Below, piece by piece: positions 3,298 to 9,944 of a stretch of 9,944 nt of DNA. Position 1 is the first letter of the stretch. The number at the start of each line of letters is the position of its first letter. This DNA is from a virus (taxonomy: Duplodnaviria > Heunggongvirae > Uroviricota > Caudoviricetes): the IMG/VR virus record IMGVR_UViG_2740892431_000015; one strand, 5' to 3'. Under the pieces are notes generated by a model. It was not told the origin of the DNA and searched no databases. It saw only the letters and a list, made by a program, of their open reading frames with translations. A program made the translations under genes and the position numbers.

Positions 3298-3519
3298 TCA
3301 TTTTGTGACCAATGCGATAAGTAGCGGGATAAGAATTGATAAAATCAACAGGCCGATGATCCACTTTTGATTTTCACTGGCCTTATCTCTATTTTCATCA
3401 ATCTTATCAATAATTCGACGCTCCAATCCGTGCATATCACCGCGAATGGCAATCATCTCATTGCGAACATCAGGGAAGTGGTTGGCTTGATGTTCAATGT
3501 GTGGCGTTCTGCCTTTCAT
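3298..3519 (-). CDS. Small tail-anchored membrane protein (73 aa): ~50-aa charged N-terminal region plus one C-terminal TM helix
   Basis: ATG at 3519 with GAGGA Shine-Dalgarno 6 nt upstream on the minus strand; C-terminal WIIGLLILSILIPLLIALV hydrophobic helix; 79 bp downstream of the RHH gene on the same strand, so probably co-transcribed. Confidence 0.55.
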   Translation of the reverse strand: MKGRTPHIEHQANHFPDVRNEMIAIRGDMHGLERRIIDKIDENRDKASENQKWIIGLLILSILIPLLIALVTK

Positions 3520-3598: not shown

Positions 3599-4054
3599 TT
3601 ATACGCTGACCTTACAATCAATCACTGCTTTTAGCTTTTCAGCATTGCTTCCCTGACGCTTCCACGCGCTGTAAATATCTTTATCCCACGCTTTACCAGC
3701 TTTTGTTTGATAGCCTGCTTCATTGATCCGTTCAGCTATCACACGCCCATTATCAAATCCCTGTTGGATGGTATCGGCAATGATCTTTATAACTGCCGTT
3801 TCGTTATATGGTTTTGGTGGGATGTTCGGCTTTCCGGCAATAAGCGACGCAGCGGCTTTTTCCATGCGCTCCACCAGCCCAAGCATTCGTGAATCAATAG
3901 ACTTTTCCGGCTGCCCCAGCTTCATGCGAATCGCATCAACAAGCCAGGAGGTTTTATCTCCTCCAGAAGCGAGAACAGACCGATTAAACTCATCCTGCAA
4001 TTCAGATGGGATGCGGAACGCGACCAGATTAGATTTGCTCATTGCAAAGACCAT
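3599..4054 (-). CDS. Ribbon-helix-helix (CopG/Arc/MetJ-like) DNA-binding protein with ~100-aa C-terminal extension (151 aa)
   Basis: N-terminus LVAFRIPSELQDEFNRSVLASGGDKTSWLVDAIRMKL fits the RHH pattern of beta-strand, helix, G-x-T/S turn, helix (my pattern recognition, not a search). First gene of a two-gene minus-strand unit; palindromic operator and iterons immediately upstream. Start may be the second ATG at 4042. Confidence 0.65.
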   Translation of the reverse strand: MVFAMSKSNLVAFRIPSELQDEFNRSVLASGGDKTSWLVDAIRMKLGQPEKSIDSRMLGLVERMEKAAASLIAGKPNIPPKPYNETAVIKIIADTIQQGFDNGRVIAERINEAGYQTKAGKAWDKDIYSAWKRQGSNAEKLKAVIDCKVSV

Positions 4055-4086
4055 ATCAGTGAGTAATATCCATACAGTATACCACT

Positions 4087-4103
4087 GTATAACACTGTTA
4101 TAC
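4087..4103. promoter_or_regulatory. Perfect 17-bp palindrome GTATAACACTGTTATAC, candidate operator in the promoter region of the minus-strand RHH operon
   Basis: Read directly: arms gtataaca / tgttatac around central C at 4095; lies 33-49 bp upstream of the minus-strand start codon at 4054. Confidence 0.4.
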
Positions 4104-4149
4104 GCTCAAATATCAGCCAGAAAATAACGGACCAATCACAAATCTATCG

Positions 4150-4268
4150 CTGTGTTGTTGGTTCAGAGCTGGGCTGTGTTGGTTCAAAATGAGTTGATGT
4201 TGGTTCAATATTTCAGAAAAAACACAATAAAAACAACAATCTTTACAAATTGAACCAACTGAACCAAC
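4150..4268. promoter_or_regulatory. Iteron-like array: three direct TGTTGGTTCA repeats at exact 21-bp spacing plus two tandem inverted TGAACCAAC copies, between divergent genes
   Basis: TGTTGGTTCA at 4156-4165, 4177-4186, 4198-4207; TGAACCAAC at 4251-4259 and 4260-4268; TATAAT at 4281-4286 just before the ATG at 4300. Confidence 0.55.
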
Positions 4269-4299
4269 TATGCTTATCTATATAATCTGAGAGGCAGAA

Positions 4300-4581
4300 A
4301 TGATAAGGGACAGGAAAGCTGAAGAGCTGGAGTCAAAAGGGCTATACCGGAGAGCTGCCGCACGATGGATGGAAGTCATGCTGTTATGCACCGAGGACGA
4401 TGATCGGGAATGGATAAAGCGCCGCCGTGAAACGTGTCTGGAGAACGTGAAGCGCCCGCCCGTGAAGGTTGAGGAATTTGGCGACCTGCATAAAGCTGTT
4501 ACCGAAACGCAACACCGCATGGGGATAGCGCAACCGAACGGTAACGCCTTCCGGTTAAATGGCGGCAAGAGGCAAAGGTAG
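4300..4581 (+). CDS. PerC-family-like transcriptional activator (93 aa)
   Basis: GAGAGG Shine-Dalgarno at 4289-4294; N-terminus MIRDRKAEELESKGLYRRAAARW resembles the PerC/Pch small-activator signature as I remember it; size fits (~90 aa). Family call is from memory, not a search. Confidence 0.65.
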   Translation: MIRDRKAEELESKGLYRRAAARWMEVMLLCTEDDDREWIKRRRETCLENVKRPPVKVEEFGDLHKAVTETQHRMGIAQPNGNAFRLNGGKRQR

Positions 4582-4585
4582 ACCA

Positions 4586-4607
4586 CCAGAGGGAAATCAT
4601 CCTCTGG
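4586..4607 (+). terminator. Possible weak intrinsic terminator hairpin after the PerC-like gene
   Basis: ccagagg (4586-4592) pairs with cctctgg (4601-4607), 8-nt loop; downstream T-content is only moderate. Confidence 0.25.
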
Positions 4608-4652
4608 CTGGCGGTTTCTGGTATTTCGGGACAAGTACGCGCGCGCGTAGCA
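4608..4652 (+). repeat. Second copy of the ~45-bp repeat ending in GACAAGTACGCGCGCGCGTAGCA (contains palindrome TACGCGCGCGCGTA)
   Basis: ctggcggtttctggtatttcgggacaagtacgcgcgcgcgtagca; same orientation as the 3231-3274 copy; lies just 3' of the PerC-like gene. Confidence 0.65.
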
Positions 4653-4878
4653 CCCAATCGGTGAGGAAATAGCGGCGACCTGAATGGTCAAAATCACAAC
4701 GCAGCTATCCCCGTAAGCAGCGCTTAACGGAATAGCAGTAACCTGAATCCAGTGGGGAGGGGGTAGTCAAATCTCTACAGCCCTGACTATCCGGGACTGC
4801 CCGCCCCATCGTTTTTTTATACCCGCGAAAAATGAAATTTAATCCGGGCGTGTTTCATTCTTCCAGAGGGTATGACGT

Positions 4879-5064
4879 ATGACACCACGCGAAATAGCCT
4901 TATTGACCATCGCCAAACTTGAGCACGGAGGCCACCAGCTTACACAGGCAGATCAACGGGAGATAGAACGATCAGTTAATGCCGATATAGCCCGGCGCGA
5001 CAGGTTCCGCGAAATGATGCGAGCACCTGCCTACCAGTGGAAGAAGCCAGCGCCGCGCAGGTAG
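4879..5064 (+). CDS. Small hypothetical protein (61 aa)
   Basis: ATG at 4879 with AGAGGG Shine-Dalgarno 8 nt upstream; same strand and immediately upstream of the pRiA4b-ORF3-like gene; no recognisable family. Confidence 0.4.
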   Translation: MTPREIALLTIAKLEHGGHQLTQADQREIERSVNADIARRDRFREMMRAPAYQWKKPAPRR

Positions 5065-5184
5065 ATATGGGATTATTCCACATGTAACTTATGCGTATTA
5101 AGCAAATTTCCTTTATTCACCTTTACAGAATTGTGAGTACGTCAGTATCGTTATCCTTCCGATTCGCATTTATTCAGGATTTGC

Positions 5185-5727
5185 ATGTACCAGCTAAAGA
5201 TAACCATCCGAGACAGCAAACCACCTATATGGCGGCGTGTGCTGGTTCCAGAGCAAATCCCCTTTAGTAAACTTCATGCCGTGATCCAGTTAGCTTTTGG
5301 CTGGAATGACGAACACCTGTATATGTTCGAGAAAGGGCGTAAAGGTGATCCAGGTAGCGAGTATCGCGTATGGGGTGAGGATGAAAGCATGGGTAACGCG
5401 GCAATCACGCCACTATGGGCGGCGCTCCAGAATGAGGGTGACAAGCTGGTTTACACGTATGACTTTGGCGACTGGTGGGATTGCGTCATTGTGCTGGAGA
5501 AGCAAACACACGATACGAGTAATCAGCCCATTAGCTGCCTGCGTGGGAAAGGCACCACCCCGGCGGAAAACTCAGGCGGCTTGCATGGTTACAATGAATT
5601 GCTATTACAGGCCAGAGAGTCTGATAATCCTGAGCAGGCCGAGATCCACAATTTCCTGATGCTGGATATTGAACGCCGGGTTTACGACCTGAGCCGCATC
5701 AACGACAGATTGCAGGCTATTAACTGA
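5185..5727 (+). CDS. pRiA4b ORF-3-like family protein (180 aa), the family of the IS1096 'TnpR'-like protein; function unknown
   Basis: N-terminus YQLKITIRDSKPPIWRRVLVPEQIPFSKLHAVIQLAFGWNDEHLYMF matches the conserved IWRR...LH.VIQ..(F/M)GW..HLY.F signature I recall for this family. Confidence 0.8.
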   Translation: MYQLKITIRDSKPPIWRRVLVPEQIPFSKLHAVIQLAFGWNDEHLYMFEKGRKGDPGSEYRVWGEDESMGNAAITPLWAALQNEGDKLVYTYDFGDWWDCVIVLEKQTHDTSNQPISCLRGKGTTPAENSGGLHGYNELLLQARESDNPEQAEIHNFLMLDIERRVYDLSRINDRLQAIN

Positions 5728-6079
5728 CCCGCATGTATTCACCTGATATTGCGTTGTCAGCGCCGCCAGTATCGCGCATAACAGCGCACTGACCGGGTAA
5801 ACCGTAGCGCACGACCGTTGCGTTAGTATCACCGCCGCGCCGTATCTGGCGCGATTCATACACTGTCACCCGCTCAAGCAGTCCACCAGCAACCATGCTT
5901 TCCAGTGTGCGCCGGGTTGATTCGAGCTGGTGACGCTTATCGAACGACACCATGCCATGAAGCAGGTAGGCCACACCCGACACATCGAACGGCGGCGCAC
6001 CAATCTCACCAGTCACCCATTCGAGGTTATCCGGTTCAAAGTAGCTAAGTATCTCTTTTTTGCGGCTGGTCATTCTCAT
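5720..6079 (-). CDS. Hypothetical protein (119 aa), possibly a winged-helix DNA-binding protein
   Basis: ATG at 6079 with AAGGAA ~11 nt upstream on the minus strand; imperfect 32-bp palindrome upstream; 3' end overlaps the convergent 5185-5727 gene by 8 bp. GC-rich region with long ORFs in several frames, so coding status is uncertain. Confidence 0.5.
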   Translation of the reverse strand: MRMTSRKKEILSYFEPDNLEWVTGEIGAPPFDVSGVAYLLHGMVSFDKRHQLESTRRTLESMVAGGLLERVTVYESRQIRRGGDTNATVVRYGLPGQCAVMRDTGGADNAISGEYMRVS

Positions 6080-6092
6080 GGCTGGCTGATTC

Positions 6093-6124
6093 CTTATTGT
6101 GGGATAGCACTATCATACAATAAG
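6093..6124. promoter_or_regulatory. Compound imperfect palindrome (CTTATTGT ... GATAG-CA-CTATC ... ACAATAAG), candidate operator upstream of the 119-aa minus-strand gene
   Basis: Read directly: 8-bp outer arms at 6093-6100 and 6117-6124 with a nested GATAG/CTATC inner palindrome; 26 of 32 positions symmetric. Confidence 0.4.
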
Positions 6125-6901
6125 TGGGTTAAAGGGAGAGCGTTACCGCCTGATATGCTGTATGAATAACAACCAAATTTCAGGGGCGGAAAAAGATATG
6201 GGGGTACTTTTGGGGGTATCTATAAAAAATGAACAATAAAAAAGGCAACAAAAACAAAGCTTATCGCCTATGTGTATTGTTCCTATTATCGCACAATCAA
6301 GAAAATCAATAACTTAGCTTAACTTCTCTAAGAAATTGTATCTTCTGTTATCACTTACAAACGCCTATACGTTGTTATGGGCTTTGGTAGTGTAACACGT
6401 ATGGGCGAGTAGTTCCCAGGCTCAACCTCGTAACAAGTTCCTTTGAAGCTGGAAGACGTGCCACCGTCTCTAAACCTTCTACCAAAACTCTTAGCAAGAT
6501 GTTCCACACCTGGCGCGGTGTCCAATGATGCTACACGTCGTGAGACGTTGCAGAGGATAAACAGGCTAAATGATGGGAAGAGTTTTAAGTGCAATAGTGG
6601 ATCAAAGCCCACCTCTTCAAAACCTAACTTGATCGGGAAAGAATCAAGCTCTAGCACGGTTTCGTCCACCGGAGTACAACGGGTGCCTGATAAGAGAAGA
6701 ACTGCTAAGACTTCATAGCTTTTGTGAAAAAGCCCTTTTAGTGGATACGCCTACGGCGCTTATTTTTTGGGGTAGCCCATCAAAGGCGCTTTATGGCTCC
6801 TATTGTCTTGAAAATGTATCTTTACTTGTATTGTGTTTTATGCGTAGTCTCCCTGTGTAGTATGTAACTTGTTAATTTTCATATGAATACAGAGGCACAC
6901 G

Positions 6902-7060
6902 ATGAAAAACATTGCAGCTATCAAACGTAATAACCGCAAGATTCACGCTCGTAAGTTCCTGTCTACGCCAGAAGGAAAAGCCTGGCTAGAGCGTAAACAG
7001 AGAGAGAACGAAGAAAGAAAACTCCTTAATGAGTTGAAATGGCTTAGAGAGGATTTCTGA
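6902..7060 (+). CDS. Small basic protein (52 aa), below the ORF-track threshold: MKNIAAIKRNNRKIHARKFLSTPEGKAWLERKQRENEERKLLNELKWLREDF
   Basis: ATG at 6902 with AGAGG Shine-Dalgarno at 6891-6895 (6-nt spacer); TGA at 7058-7060; sits alone in AT-rich DNA that is otherwise noncoding. Confidence 0.45.
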   Translation: MKNIAAIKRNNRKIHARKFLSTPEGKAWLERKQRENEERKLLNELKWLREDF

Positions 7061-7224
7061 AAATCTCCAGAACGCAACAGGACGCATTCTAACGCTATTT
7101 TCATTGCTTGGTATAGGGATGTATAGGTGATGTGTGTTTAATGCGTCTGTGCGCTTGTTTTGTGCCTTATTTTGCATTTTCATAATGCAGAAGAGAACAC
7201 GGAAAACCTTAAAATTAATTATTG

Positions 7225-7262
7225 GGGTATTTAAGGGTATTTTCAGGTGATTTAAGGGTATT
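7225..7262 (+). repeat. GGGTATT(T/A) direct repeats, including two 13-bp copies ATTTAAGGGTATT spaced 20 bp apart
   Basis: gggtattt at 7225-7232 and 7235-7242, gggtatta at 7256-7263; related GGGGGTA pair at 6199-6220. Confidence 0.5.
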
Positions 7263-7330
7263 AAACTTGATTTAATTGATTAAAATATAAACAGATAGTT
7301 GTGTATCTTATTGATTTATAAGGTTATTTT

Positions 7331-7390
7331 TAAATAAAGGTAAATAAAAAATAAATAGCCATAAATAGCTATAAATACATCTAAATACCT
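7331..7390 (+). repeat. Six tandem 10-bp units of (A/T)TAAATA-type, 10-bp helical phasing (probable intrinsically curved DNA)
   Basis: taaataaagg, taaataaaaa, ataaatagcc, ataaatagct, ataaatacat, ctaaatacct occupying consecutive 10-bp blocks 7331-7390. Confidence 0.55.
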
Positions 7391-7872
7391 ATATCCCTTC
7401 CCTTATGGCTAGATTGCGAGAGGTGCTTAACGCGATTTTCAGCGCCCCCCGATCTGGAAAATCCAGAATCCCCAAATATCAGCAAGGAATTTTCTTGCGT
7501 AATCAACATCGTTTTTACCTATTAAATCATTACACAGAAAGCCTTTCTGTAATGTCTCTCACTAAACTTTCACTAAACACGAGAATGATCGGTTTTATGT
7601 CGGATCAGATGCTAGAAACAGCACCACGTCTCACAAGGACTGTAAGCGATGAAACCAGTGTTTATGCGGGTGCAGGTCAAAATATAGGCCAAAATCAATT
7701 TAACATAATAAACGTAATATGCACTAAGGAACACATAGAACGCCTTGAGTTGATGTATCAGGGGAAAAAAGTGATGGATTTTTTACGTAGGAGCACGAGA
7801 GGGCTTCTGTTGACTTTTGTATGCTATGAAACATAATTAAAGGTTTTTTTGTTTTTATTGTGTGATGTAGTG

Positions 7873-7900
7873 GATTACACAGGGGAATAGATTAAATGGT
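7873..7900 (+). repeat. Iteron copy GATTACACAGGGGAATAGATTAAATGG (ATTACACAGG family)
   Basis: Shares the ATTACACAGGG-AATA...GATTA-TGG pattern with the tandem copies at 8224-8287. Confidence 0.45.
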
Positions 7901-8223
7901 GTTCTGTTTATACAGGTTTATTTGTTAGATCAACAATTTGGCATTTCTAAACAGATGTTTGAACGTTGCCAAATGTCTTGACAACACAAGAAAAGGGCTT
8001 GCTATGCCACGCATTACACGAAATAAGGCTGTAAAAACAAAATAAATTTTAAAATTTGCACAAACGAGAAAACTCGTTAAGAAACAAGCAGAACAATTTT
8101 TAGCCAACAATTTCTGATGGTGCTCTGTAGGCCGCACTACACAAGGATTTGCGAAAGTGATGTAAAAGTGAAGAAAGTAAGAATTGCACTTTTAAGCTAC
8201 TTTTCATTGAATTTTTAGTATGG

Positions 8224-8287
8224 AATTACACAGGAATAAGTTAGGGATATTCTATGATTTACACAGGGAATATAGGGGATTATGGCA
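8224..8287 (+). repeat. Tandem pair of ~32-bp imperfect direct repeats (ATTACACAGG family iterons)
   Basis: aattacacaggaataagttagggatattctatg (8224-8256) and atttacacagggaatataggggattatggcac (8256-8287); further single cores at 8013-8020, 8136-8146, 8303-8311 and 9405-9415. Confidence 0.55.
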
Positions 8288-8459
8288 CACACATAGAAAG
8301 GCATTACACAGAGTGAGTGCTATGTGATGATTGGTAGTAACGGTAGGTCATAGTGAGCTAGGGGGTAGGTCACTGTGAACTACAATAAGACTATTAATAA
8401 AACTATATTAGATTATTAATTAGATCATAATAATAATATTCTTTATATCTATATATATG

Positions 8460-8880
8460 ATCTTTTGCCTTCCGGCGTTAGCTTCACTCTCTGGCAAGCA
8501 GCCTTACTCCGCTACCTTTCGGGCTTCGTGGCTGGCCCGTTCCGCTCACACCGAAAGCAAAGCGTTACTTTCTTCGTGTAACTTCGTTGGCGGTAACGCC
8601 CACGAAGAAATCTATTGCGCTGTGCGCAGTAAGAGTAATCACCTAACCAATCATACTGATTGCTTATGTGTTAACTCTCTCTAACTCTTAATTACCCTCC
8701 TACATTTAATAACTCTGTTATTCTCTGTAGTTGTGTAATTACTCGAAGAGAGAGCGGCTAAAGCTCAATTACACTCTGCTTTCCTCGTGTAATTTCACTA
8801 AGCCTCAATACAATTTCACTTCCTACATTCTGTAGTCGTGTAATTGTTTTCGGTGGAAAAGCCAGAGGCGACACCGAAAG
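8460..8880 (+). other. GC-enriched structured island inside AT-rich DNA; candidate structured ncRNA or single-strand initiation/origin hairpins
   Basis: Hairpin 8516-8557 (ctttcgg / ccgaaag); hairpin 8570-8609 (9-bp stem ttcttcgtg / cacgaagaa enclosing GGCG-GTAA-CGCC, a GNRA tetraloop); hairpin 8848-8879 (tttcggtg / caccgaaa); 10-mer ACACCGAAAG repeated at 8548-8557 and 8871-8880. The 75-aa ORF here has no ribosome-binding site. Confidence 0.3.
8721..8845 (+). repeat. Two direct repeats TTCT(CT)GTAGT(T/C)GTGTAATT carrying the iteron core in reverse orientation
   Basis: 8721-8740 and 8828-8845; further reverse-orientation cores CGTGTAA(C/T) at 8575-8582 and 8785-8793. Confidence 0.45.
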
Positions 8881-8888
8881 AGAATTCT

Positions 8889-8950
8889 GATCTTATTAAT
8901 CTTATCTATCTTAGTTAATCTTCTTACTTATCTTACTTACTTTATCTACT
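8889..8950 (+). repeat. Degenerate 9-bp tandem repeat (ATCTTAnnn) in a G-depleted pyrimidine-rich tract
   Basis: TCTTA at 8890, 8899, 8908, 8921, 8930 (mostly exact 9-bp spacing); only one G between 8889 and 8965 on the top strand. Confidence 0.5.
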
Positions 8951-9481
8951 TTATTATTAATAATAGCTTTATAAGCTCTCTGTGTAGCTCTCTGACGCAA
9001 GAAACAGCATTCAGGAAGGGAATCACCTTAGAAAAGGTGTTCTTTGCGTCATAATGTGTTTTATGAAGGATTCAGAGGTGTTTCATAACAGGAATGTATA
9101 GAGAATACTTTAGGTAATTAAAAATAAGGGGTCTAAATGCTTCTCTAACAGCATTAAGCAGGGTAGGGAATGGAAACGCATTGCCTACATATAATAAACT
9201 CACTACAGGGCTTTACAGGGCGTTTTATAAAGTGACTCTCTGTTTTATATCTACAATCACCTTTTCATATACCTAACAAATACAAAATAAGCCCCTTAAA
9301 TAAGCCTCTGGCGAGCTAAACAGACATTACATAAGAGAATGTATTGCTTTTATCAAAACTTCGTTAGAACGCGTTTTAGAGCGTTTTAGCGGATAATGAA
9401 GAATAGCACTACACAGAAGAGCACGAATTGCTAAGACAAATTATAACATGCTGAAAAAGATCGATTTTTTCGAAAAGGGTA

Positions 9482-9510
9482 TTGACAAATGTTTCTTTAT
9501 ATGTAATAAT
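9482..9510 (+). promoter_or_regulatory. Sigma70-type promoter candidate with extended -10 (TTGACA, 17-bp spacer, TGtAATAAT)
   Basis: Consensus -35 TTGACA at 9482-9487; TG at 9503-9504 and AATAAT at 9505-9510; would give a ~105-nt leader to the ATG at 9624. Confidence 0.45.
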
Positions 9511-9623
9511 AGGTATTAGAGGGACAGAAAAACATTCTTCTCTAAATAATCAAAATCAATGCACTTTGAAGCCGTCAGGCTTGCAAGGTGTTTTATTTCT
9601 TTTAACTGAATAAGGAGTTTTTT

Positions 9624-9812
9624 ATGAAATGGTTTACACCGGAGCACGTCGTAAAGGCATTTAAAAAAGGTGAGCTTACACGCCACCAAATAGTAATGAA
9701 TCGTAATATGGCAAGGAGTCGAGGTTATCCAGAGCGAGCAGCTTGCTTCAATGAAGCACTCAAGATTATTGATGAACTAAGAAAAAATGAAAAAGAATCT
9801 GAAACAGAGTAA
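9624..9812 (+). CDS. Small hypothetical protein (62 aa)
   Basis: Strong AAGGAG Shine-Dalgarno at 9612-9617 with 6-nt spacer; candidate promoter upstream; followed 19 bp later by a second gene with its own ribosome-binding site. Confidence 0.6.
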   Translation: MKWFTPEHVVKAFKKGELTRHQIVMNRNMARSRGYPERAACFNEALKIIDELRKNEKESETE

Positions 9813-9831
9813 AGAAGAGAAGGAGAAAACT

Positions 9832-9939
9832 ATGAGCGAAGCTACAGAAAAGAAAAGACAACCACGCACTTGCTTTCATATTCCTGATGAAGTATTTCAG
9901 GTGTTGTTTAAAGAAGCGGTGATGCTGCCAACTTACTGA
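9832..9939 (+). pseudogene. Gene truncated by IS1 insertion: native N-terminal ~28 codons (MSEATEKKRQPRTCFHIPDEVFQVLFKEA) run into the IS1 end and stop at TGA 9937-9939
   Basis: ATG at 9832 with AGGAG at 9821-9825; the reading frame continues into the IS1 terminal repeat (from 9918), so the native C-terminus is missing. Confidence 0.5.
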
Positions 9940-9944
9940 TTTAG
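9918..9944 (+). mobile_element. IS1 terminal inverted repeat (IRL-type end), 27-bp fragment; element body lies outside the window to the right
   Basis: GGTGATGCTGCCAACTTACTGATTTAG matches the IS1 left terminus as I remember it and is the exact inverse of bases 1-27. Confidence 0.85.

Follow-up and report, generated by a model that had tools for sequence, protein, structure and literature searches.

Origins of phage-inducible chromosomal islands (PICIs) lie 3′ of rep and consist of two repeat sets placed around an A+T-rich region, an arrangement that is functional in EcCICFT073 (PMC6092414). In SaPIs, the Rep and Pri-Rep proteins are self-loading initiator-helicases, and the C-terminal winged-helix domain of Rep recognises repeats that flank an A+T-rich centre just past rep (PMC9371898). 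EcCIMP1 is a PICI that is excised and transduced when its P22-like helper phage, Kapi1, is induced; its published description makes no mention of a replication origin or of iterons (PMC11773190).

Satellite phage P4 has repeat clusters in two places, ori and crr, which share the type-1 repeat and are bound by the alpha primase-helicase. Its annotated record places crr immediately past the alpha gene and ori at a distance of 4.7 kb, in the region between sid and the divergent AlpA-like ORF88; the functions of ori and crr are taken from this record and from general background.

Here we analyse an intergenic array of short repeats at positions 4156–4268 of a 9,944-nucleotide stretch of viral DNA (the window; that is, the whole stretch that was analysed). 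The comparisons below make it probable that the array is a repeat unit from the replication origin of a PICI of the EcCIMP1 type. A small origin, which an earlier note on this DNA had offered as an alternative to a binding array for a DNA-binding protein, possibly that of the adjacent gene, fits the evidence best, the plan being that of PICI and SaPI origins.

Judged by sequence, the window is an IS1-truncated EcCIMP1-like PICI at thrW. It matches E. coli chromosomes at 99% identity, and the integration site of the island is tRNA-Thr (thrW), with a tyrosine integrase gene adjoining. Its PerC protein shares 100% identity with EcCIMP1_025, from E. coli MP1, and two further products, that of the 61-aa ORF and the pRiA4b-ORF3 protein, have the same accession numbers as their identical EcCIMP1 counterparts. 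Positions 1–36 of the window are identical to the near-identical locus L001 from its position 16602, directly beside the annotated IS1A transposase; in this locus IS1 sits directly between the integrase region and the gene for a P22 gp16-like ejection protein. Intact islands carry ejection-protein genes and the primase gene upstream of the point at which IS1 truncates the window; the IS1-associated truncation thus leaves the window without the primase-helicase gene and the first origin unit, to the left. The features that bear on the argument are these:

1–27: IS1 terminal inverted repeat, marking the truncation of the island
3599–4042, − strand: RHH-like gene, a variable neighbour of the array; its product has 147 aa if it begins with MSKS and 151 aa if it begins at the ATG upstream, at 4054
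4071–4103: RHH-proximal repeat block CATACAGTATACCACTGTATAACACTGTTATAC, likely the RHH-like protein's own operator
4156, 4177 and 4198 (block 4156–4207), + strand: in-phase side of the unit, three TGTTGGTTCA repeats 21 bp apart
4157–4165, 4178–4186 and 4199–4207, + strand: exact copies of GTTGGTTCA, start-to-start distances 21 and 21
4208–4250: A+T-rich centre, 43 bp, 81% A+T, a candidate DNA melting site
4228–4236: conserved block TAAAAACAA, inside the A+T-rich centre
4240–4250: conserved block TCTTTACAAAT, inside the A+T-rich centre
4251–4268, − strand: tandem side of the unit, two abutting copies of GTTGGTTCA with a 9-bp period; the + strand reads TGAACCAAC
4251–4259 and 4260–4268, − strand: exact inverted copies of GTTGGTTCA
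4269–4270: scar of a 14-bp deletion and one substitution, with loss of a third tandem repeat, from alignments to loci L001–L009
4281–4286, + strand: TATAAT, a −10-like hexamer found by eye 13 nt upstream of the PerC start codon, possibly a PerC promoter element
4300–4581, + strand: PerC-family gene (PF06069, E 3.7e-30), right neighbour of the array in E. coli

The earlier note had described three direct repeats at 21-bp spacing followed by two abutting inverted copies, between divergent flanking genes, and this description is borne out: all five copies are exact, with the RHH-like ORF on the − strand and PerC on the + strand. The remaining match to GTTGGTTCA in the 9,944 bp is at 1013, with one mismatch. 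In 200 shuffles of the window, the largest number of clustered copies of one 9-mer was 2 in 195 shuffles and 3 in the other 5; the five copies of one 9-mer that are observed within 120 bp were never reached. The spacer at 4208–4250, with its 81% A+T, stands in a window that is 57% A+T as a whole, and the blocks TAAAAACAA and TCTTTACAAAT inside it are invariant alignment columns, the copy beside the primase gene included. Close relatives have three abutting inverted copies, and the window has two because of the 14-bp deletion and the substitution at 4269–4270. Searches of Rfam gave no family in the whole window at the gathering threshold, or in 4000–5000 at E ≤ 1, and folding of 4585–4835 gave a z of −1.68, which is not significant.

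Complete islands share a gene order: integrase, AlpA, AntA/B, Ash, Icd-like and a TOPRIM/DUF927 primase-helicase, continued by DUF2824, P22 gp7/gp20/gp16-like ejection proteins, an AlpA or RHH-like gene, and PerC. Three intact islands were examined (L010, L011 and EcCIMP1 itself, L077). In each of them GTTGGTTCA forms two clusters, with six copies apiece; every copy is exact in L010 and L077, and L011 has a single copy with a mismatch. From the primase-helicase stop codon to the start of the primase-side cluster the distance is ~26 bp. The distal cluster, to which the copy in the window corresponds, lies ~7.5 kb away and inverted, upstream of PerC, in the intergenic region between PerC and a divergent regulator gene (AlpA or RHH-like). 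The repeat unit is ~120 bp long, and the two units are inverted copies of each other over ~140 bp, A+T-rich centre included. By alignment and gene order, the array in the window is the distal unit, with one tandem repeat deleted, and orphaned, because the primase-helicase gene is missing through IS1.

The array is kept in E. coli variants that have, to its left, an AlpA gene plus a small ORF or else genes of other kinds. None of these variants departs from the three direct repeats or from their 21-bp spacing, although the spacers between them have diverged. The number of abutting copies ranges from 2 to 4 in the variants examined; one Erwinia locus has 7 in its primase-side unit. For many genomes, homology to the window starts exactly at repeat 1 or repeat 2 (query positions 558 and 579, corresponding to window positions 4156 and 4177). 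The end of the primase-helicase gene together with the adjoining repeat unit is present in 363 of 5426 complete E. coli genomes.

With the last 318 aa of the primase-helicase as query, a search that took a single genome for each species yielded 64 loci in Enterobacterales and one in Glaesserella. Sequence past the primase-helicase stop codon was sufficient in 53 loci from other species, and in nearly all of these a repeat cluster lies 27–60 bp past the stop codon; the exceptions are three loci in which the cluster lies ~100–170 bp past the stop codon and one, L046, without a clear cluster. A motif-first scan of IMG/VR placed a cluster no more than 120 nt from the primase stop codon in 48 of the 48 loci that contain the primase C-terminus. 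The spacing is kept to the base: 9, 9, 52, 11 and 21 in the primase-side unit, and 21, 21, 52, 9 and 9 in the second unit, the latter series being found in Escherichia, Cedecea, Lonsdalea, Rosenbergiella, Chimaeribacter, Serratia, Pantoea, Leclercia and Erwinia. Lack of conserved spacing in homologous loci, which the earlier note had named among the grounds for giving up a binding array, is not what we find, because the 21/21/52/9/9 series is kept across these nine genera. The second unit adjoins the first or lies 0.3–9 kb away, and in about a dozen loci none was detected within 10 kb, which argues against a universal need for it. Where both units are present in a locus examined, one repeat type is common to both, every time. 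The right neighbour of the homologous unit in other genera is often a gene other than PerC, encoding, for example, a membrane protein or a CAT-like protein.

Ten repeat types occur among these loci: TGAACCAAC, TGAGACAAC, TGAACCGAC, TGAACCAC, ACGGGTTA, GTGGGTTA, TGGGATAA, CCGGGATA, GGGACAAC and TAGTCCAA. The results indicate that repeat type tracks a short patch of the primase-helicase ~25 residues from its C-terminus, as follows:

repeat TGAACCAAC: C-terminal patch RG[YF]QRKSPR[IV], in 39 of 39 loci
repeat TGAGACAAC: C-terminal patch RGYQGRV-RE
repeats of the ...GGGTTA types: C-terminal patch K[RK]KAL[KR]
repeat TGGGATAA: C-terminal patch QIRTPRLKH
repeat GGGACAAC: C-terminal patch QGRTPRLKH

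Between the TGAGACAAC and TGAACCAAC groups the patch differs and the remaining C-terminal part is ~86% identical. When protein pairs are matched for an identity of 0.84 over the body, the tails are identical at 0.71 if the two loci share a repeat type and at 0.52 if they do not. The co-variation is in part confounded by shared ancestry, a concern that the matched-identity comparison and the localised TGAGACAAC swap reduce and do not remove.

The C-terminal region of the primase-helicase models as a winged-helix domain like those of SCCmec Cch helicases. An AF2 model of the last 217 aa (pLDDT 85) consists of helices followed by a helix-helix-hairpin, and the variable patch lies in the loop of the hairpin. 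The best structure matches of this model are the SCCmec Cch helicase 5dgk (E 3.6e-5) and 5vfx, a winged-helix protein bound to oriT DNA (probability 0.99), and a weak Pfam match to the Cch HTH domain agrees with them. These matches come only from the structure model; when PDB sequences were searched with a profile of this domain, nothing meaningful was returned. The helicase part matches PDB 8tch, 'Pathogenicity island protein', with an E of 2.4e-11. From position, co-variation, predicted fold and what is known of the family, we infer that the primase-helicase binds GTTGGTTCA. The relatives of the window thus contain a candidate cognate initiator-helicase whose predicted C-terminal winged-helix domain is matched to the repeat. 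The proposal of the earlier note that the repeats are a binding array for an oligomeric DNA-binding protein is supported, the array being conserved and the primase-helicase being the candidate binder.

The unit resembles the origins of PICIs and SaPIs (EcCICFT073; SaPI1 and SaPIbov1) in having opposite repeat sets (three on the + strand and two on the − strand) on either side of an A+T-rich centre of 43 bp, in having a copy 3′ of pri-rep, in the homology of the helicase to a staphylococcal pathogenicity-island protein (8tch), in the predicted C-terminal winged-helix domain that co-varies with the repeat, and in belonging to an experimentally mobilised family of elements (EcCIMP1). It differs from them in that the copy in the window is not beside rep, there being no pri-rep gene in the window, and in that intact relatives have a second, inverted copy ~7.5 kb away. 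The repeats of the island are 9–10 bp long, unlike the penta- and hexanucleotides of SaPIs, and the two sides of the unit are strongly and conservedly asymmetric (9-bp tandem versus 21-bp in-phase). The position immediately 3′ of pri-rep is occupied in intact relatives by the paralogue of the window unit, 26–60 bp past the stop codon in most loci. Since it is this paralogue, and not the window copy, that lies 3′ of pri-rep, the window copy is a displaced second copy rather than the canonical one 3′ of rep.

The likeness to P4 is one of layout. In the three intact islands, as in P4, one cluster lies right after the primase-helicase gene and the other lies in a divergent regulatory intergenic region, between an AlpA/Vis-like gene and a rightward operon, and the backbone likewise has integrase, AlpA, Ash and Icd-like genes; of this two-cluster layout the window keeps just the distal cluster. 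Unlike in P4, the helicase and DNA-binding parts are DUF927/Cch-like and not D5_N/Pox_D5, the C-terminal domain has no sequence relationship to its counterpart in alpha, the repeat is GTTGGTTCA and not TGTTCACC, the sid/delta/psu module is absent, and in many relatives the second unit is missing or adjoins the first. Only the N-terminal 360 aa of the island primase-helicase (Zn-ribbon/Toprim) align with P4 alpha, at 33% identity, and neither an alpha-family protein nor the TGTTCACC type-1 repeat is found. On these grounds, the island system resembles P4 in layout but falls outside the alpha/TGTTCACC system.

Iteron plasmid origins (pSC101, pPS10 and R6K, with RepA-type initiators) share three features with the unit: direct repeats spaced by ~21–22 bp, a stretch rich in A+T, and partial repeats that lie inverted shortly before the next gene. 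The unit differs from them in that its conserved core is just 9–10 bp, its predicted initiator is a self-loading primase-helicase, and the next gene encodes PerC and not a WH1-WH2 Rep; because the downstream gene is PerC, we rejected an origin of the plasmid RepA type.

The RHH-like gene adjacent to the array has repeats of its own. They lie ~30–60 bp upstream of its start codon and are 10-bp-phased. Alleles with the predicted beta-strand SLSVTFR have two to three copies of GTAAGACA, with a 10-bp period, at the same position as 4071–4103. The allele with the predicted beta-strand SNLVAFR has CTGTATAAC-type repeats, the block in the window being CATACAGTATACCACTGTATAACACTGTTATAC. A Serratia allele (L048) keeps the 4071–4103 block amid diverged flanks. 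Because the RHH-proximal repeats change with the predicted beta-strand, the RHH-like protein most likely autoregulates at 4071–4103. The designation 'RHH' is itself plausible rather than firm, because the protein has no curated family in Pfam or NCBIfam, with just a weak match to phrog_30270, because its hhalign alignment to the N-terminus of Arc is weak (single-comparison E 0.003, probability 10%), as is that to CopG, and because its AF2 single-sequence model is of low confidence (pLDDT 42, with a strand-helix-helix at residues 9–45); the model was left out of the fold search.

The earlier note had preferred the adjacent RHH protein as the partner of the array, which would make the array an operator at which cooperative dimers control the divergent promoters. 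RHH proteins commonly bind phased repeats, the RHH-like gene starts ~100 bp from the first GTTGGTTCA repeat, and RHH homologues adjoin the in-phase side of the distal unit in six loci (L017, L027, L032, L045, L052 and L070). We nevertheless consider this reading very unlikely. RHH homologues occur both with and without adjoining GTTGGTTCA arrays; in L034, L037 and L044 an RHH gene and its own repeats are present without any such array, and, conversely, many loci have the array but no RHH gene, among them E. coli variants in which AlpA or another gene stands to its left, and no RHH gene is near the mirror copy after the primase-helicase gene. The beta-strand allele of the RHH-like protein co-varies with the 4071–4103 repeats and not with GTTGGTTCA, the type of which tracks the primase-helicase C-terminus; repeats that co-occur and co-vary with the RHH gene, as expected of its operator, are thus not what the array consists of. 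The likeness to operators of RHH proteins (Arc, Mnt, CopG, omega and ParG), that is, short phased repeats near a small RHH-like gene, suits the separate 4071–4103 block and not the GTTGGTTCA array, which is independent of that gene. The RHH-like gene adjoins the distal unit in 6–7 of the 11 non-E. coli loci that have a distal unit. We read this as a common cargo position, and a functional link between the RHH-like module and the distal unit may exist.

According to a further reading, which we judge improbable, the array serves chiefly in transcriptional control of PerC, with PerC, AlpA or the primase-helicase bound at and upstream of a −35 element. The tandem repeats end 12–70 bp upstream of PerC in E. 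coli and L014, in three-copy alleles the last repeat is at the position of a −35 element, 17 bp from a hexamer that relatives keep as TATAAT or TATAGT, and across genera PerC is usually the first or second gene past the repeat region. However, PerC is not the right neighbour of the distal unit in L017, L045, L052, L070 and L072, and in E. coli a paralogous unit lies after the primase gene, without PerC. In other genera PerC follows the opposite side of a unit, or another ORF. L022 has a PerC that is 92% identical to that of the window, yet its repeats are TGAGACAAC, for which reason autoregulation by PerC was rejected. The earlier note had placed the inverted copies next to the PerC promoter. 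The sole sign of this promoter is the by-eye TATAAT at 4281–4286; a scan of 3900–4900 for consensus promoters and terminators gave no match, so that statements about the promoter are by eye only, and a transcript begun at TATAAT would have a leader of just 6–7 nt. Because the tandem repeats in E. coli end 12–31 bp upstream of the conserved TATAAT/TATAGT, a protein bound to them would cover the −35 region of the putative PerC promoter and might conceivably affect PerC expression. Least probable of all, to the point of being hardly credible, is a recombination or partition site, that is, arm-type sites for integrase or excisionase, or a centromere. Tandem abutting repeats do resemble clusters of arm-type sites, and the homology of island variants breaks exactly at repeat 1 or 2; but L010 and L011 have identical repeats with integrases that are 29% identical and different integration sites, which led us to reject integrase arm sites. 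Rather than lying within att arms, the array is far from att sites: in island variants that close with PerC, ~0.7–1 kb separates it from the end of the island, and in the window further island genes follow. A centromere-like site, also raised by the earlier note, was rejected because ParA is absent: neither the ORFs and Pfam matches of the window nor the annotation of the intact islands include a gene for ParA or ParM, and adjacent genes for a ParA/ParM-type NTPase and a centromere-binding protein were not found. Tracking of repeat type with the primase-helicase C-terminus argues against recombination and partition alike.

The reading that we prefer, that the array is one repeat unit of a PICI replication origin, suggests a mechanism. 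The fused primase-helicase (Zn-ribbon, Toprim and DUF927 SaPI-Rep-like helicase) would bind GTTGGTTCA through its C-terminal winged-helix domain, assemble on both sides of the A+T-rich centre, and then melt the centre. There being no primase-helicase gene in the window, function in the window cannot be autonomous, and firing of the orphan unit would depend on a matching primase-helicase provided in trans.

A more far-reaching version, to which we give a low but appreciable probability, is that the two units make up a true two-part origin, in the manner of P4 ori and crr, with inverted units that bracket exchangeable cargo and with orphans that respond in trans. The segment that would be the cargo carries P22-type ejection-protein genes and an AlpA or RHH-like gene. 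If this version were true, orphan units of decayed islands might answer the primase-helicase of a co-resident intact island, and induction of a helper phage would over-replicate the thrW region in place, altering the dosage or expression of PerC.

The preferred reading, a PICI origin unit, assigns a putative cis-acting replication element to a widespread, little-studied family of PICIs. The class of origin is already known; the P4-like duplication, with the origin split into two units around a variable cargo segment, is undescribed for PICIs in the literature searched. The correspondence between a short C-terminal patch and repeat sequence, over ten types, offers a testable read-out. For annotation, the case warns that intergenic repeats should not be assigned to the nearest small DNA-binding gene, since the RHH-like protein here has a separate candidate operator. 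Finally, PerC of this island family represses LEE1: in Citrobacter rodentium, EcCIMP1_025, which is PerC-like, lowered expression from a LEE1 reporter (PMC11773190). If occupancy of the origin were coupled to PerC expression, this would therefore bear on virulence regulation.

The abutting 9-bp repeats of the probable origin unit, which in the window lies between the RHH-like gene and the PerC gene, vary in number from allele to allele. The window has two (4251-4270), the E. coli variants examined have two to four, and an Erwinia locus (L041, 3988-4050) has seven in its primase-side unit. The variation in number looks like the product of replication slippage. The window allele also carries a 14-bp deletion that is absent from its closest E. 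coli matches.

The non-coding and coding features that flank this origin unit in the window are as follows:
4071-4103, repeat block CATACAGTATACCACTGTATAACACTGTTATAC, separate from the array and immediately upstream of the RHH-like gene
4582-4878, non-coding stretch of 297 nt, from PerC to a 61-aa ORF
4879-6079, trio conserved after PerC in EcCIMP1-like islands: the 61-aa ORF, a gene for a protein of the pRiA4b ORF-3 family (PF07929), and an ORF of 119 aa in convergent orientation

The CATACAGTATACCACTGTATAACACTGTTATAC block is kept in one Serratia locus despite divergent flanks, and loci with the other predicted beta-strand allele of the RHH-like protein have GTAAGACA repeats in its place. 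The block at 4071-4103 probably serves the RHH-like protein as its operator. The 297-nt stretch 3' of PerC contains ACAAGTACGCGCGCG and ends with a T-run near 4823; the fold predicted for it falls short of significance (z = -1.68), and it has no match in Rfam. Two sequences similar to ACAAGTACGCGCGCG are present in a Serratia locus (L048), in the interval that separates the RHH-like gene from the origin unit. Within the conserved trio, the product of the 119-aa ORF has no family match and, by eye, looks like a winged-helix protein, and a homologue of the 61-aa ORF occurs also upstream of the array in some island variants (L002, L004, L005).

The segment at 6100-9944 has a low G+C content (34-44%), is almost devoid of long ORFs, and shares ~94% identity with a stretch of the IncF plasmid NZ_CP126938 that adjoins recombinase and IS3 genes. 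Its counterpart in the near-identical E. coli locus L001 runs into a second element, with a major capsid protein gene and an integrase of its own. The segment appears to be a separate element, integrated in tandem.

The left-hand part of the window comprises the following features:
1-27, IS1 terminal inverted repeat, adjoining the region where the gp16-like gene starts
37-2142, P22-type DNA-ejection protein gene (gp16-like); in the intact island L010, the ejection-protein genes occupy 20473-25131
2162-2776 and 3298-3519, minus strand, two ORFs in the interval from the ejection-protein gene to the RHH-like gene

The island segment from the integrase region to the gp16-like gene is missing, as in L001, and with it the first origin unit as well as the gene for the primase-helicase. 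Of the two minus-strand ORFs, one encodes a membrane-like protein of 204 aa whose weak PHROG match is SieA-like (superinfection exclusion), and the other a protein of 73 aa whose weak PHROG match is holin-like or unknown; they are possible anti-phage cargo. Intact relatives have, in addition to the gp16-like gene, gp7-like, gp20-like and DUF2824 genes, and the island contains no virion genes other than those for ejection proteins. Because Kapi1, the known helper phage, resembles P22, the ejection proteins of the island may substitute for, or alter, those of the helper itself.
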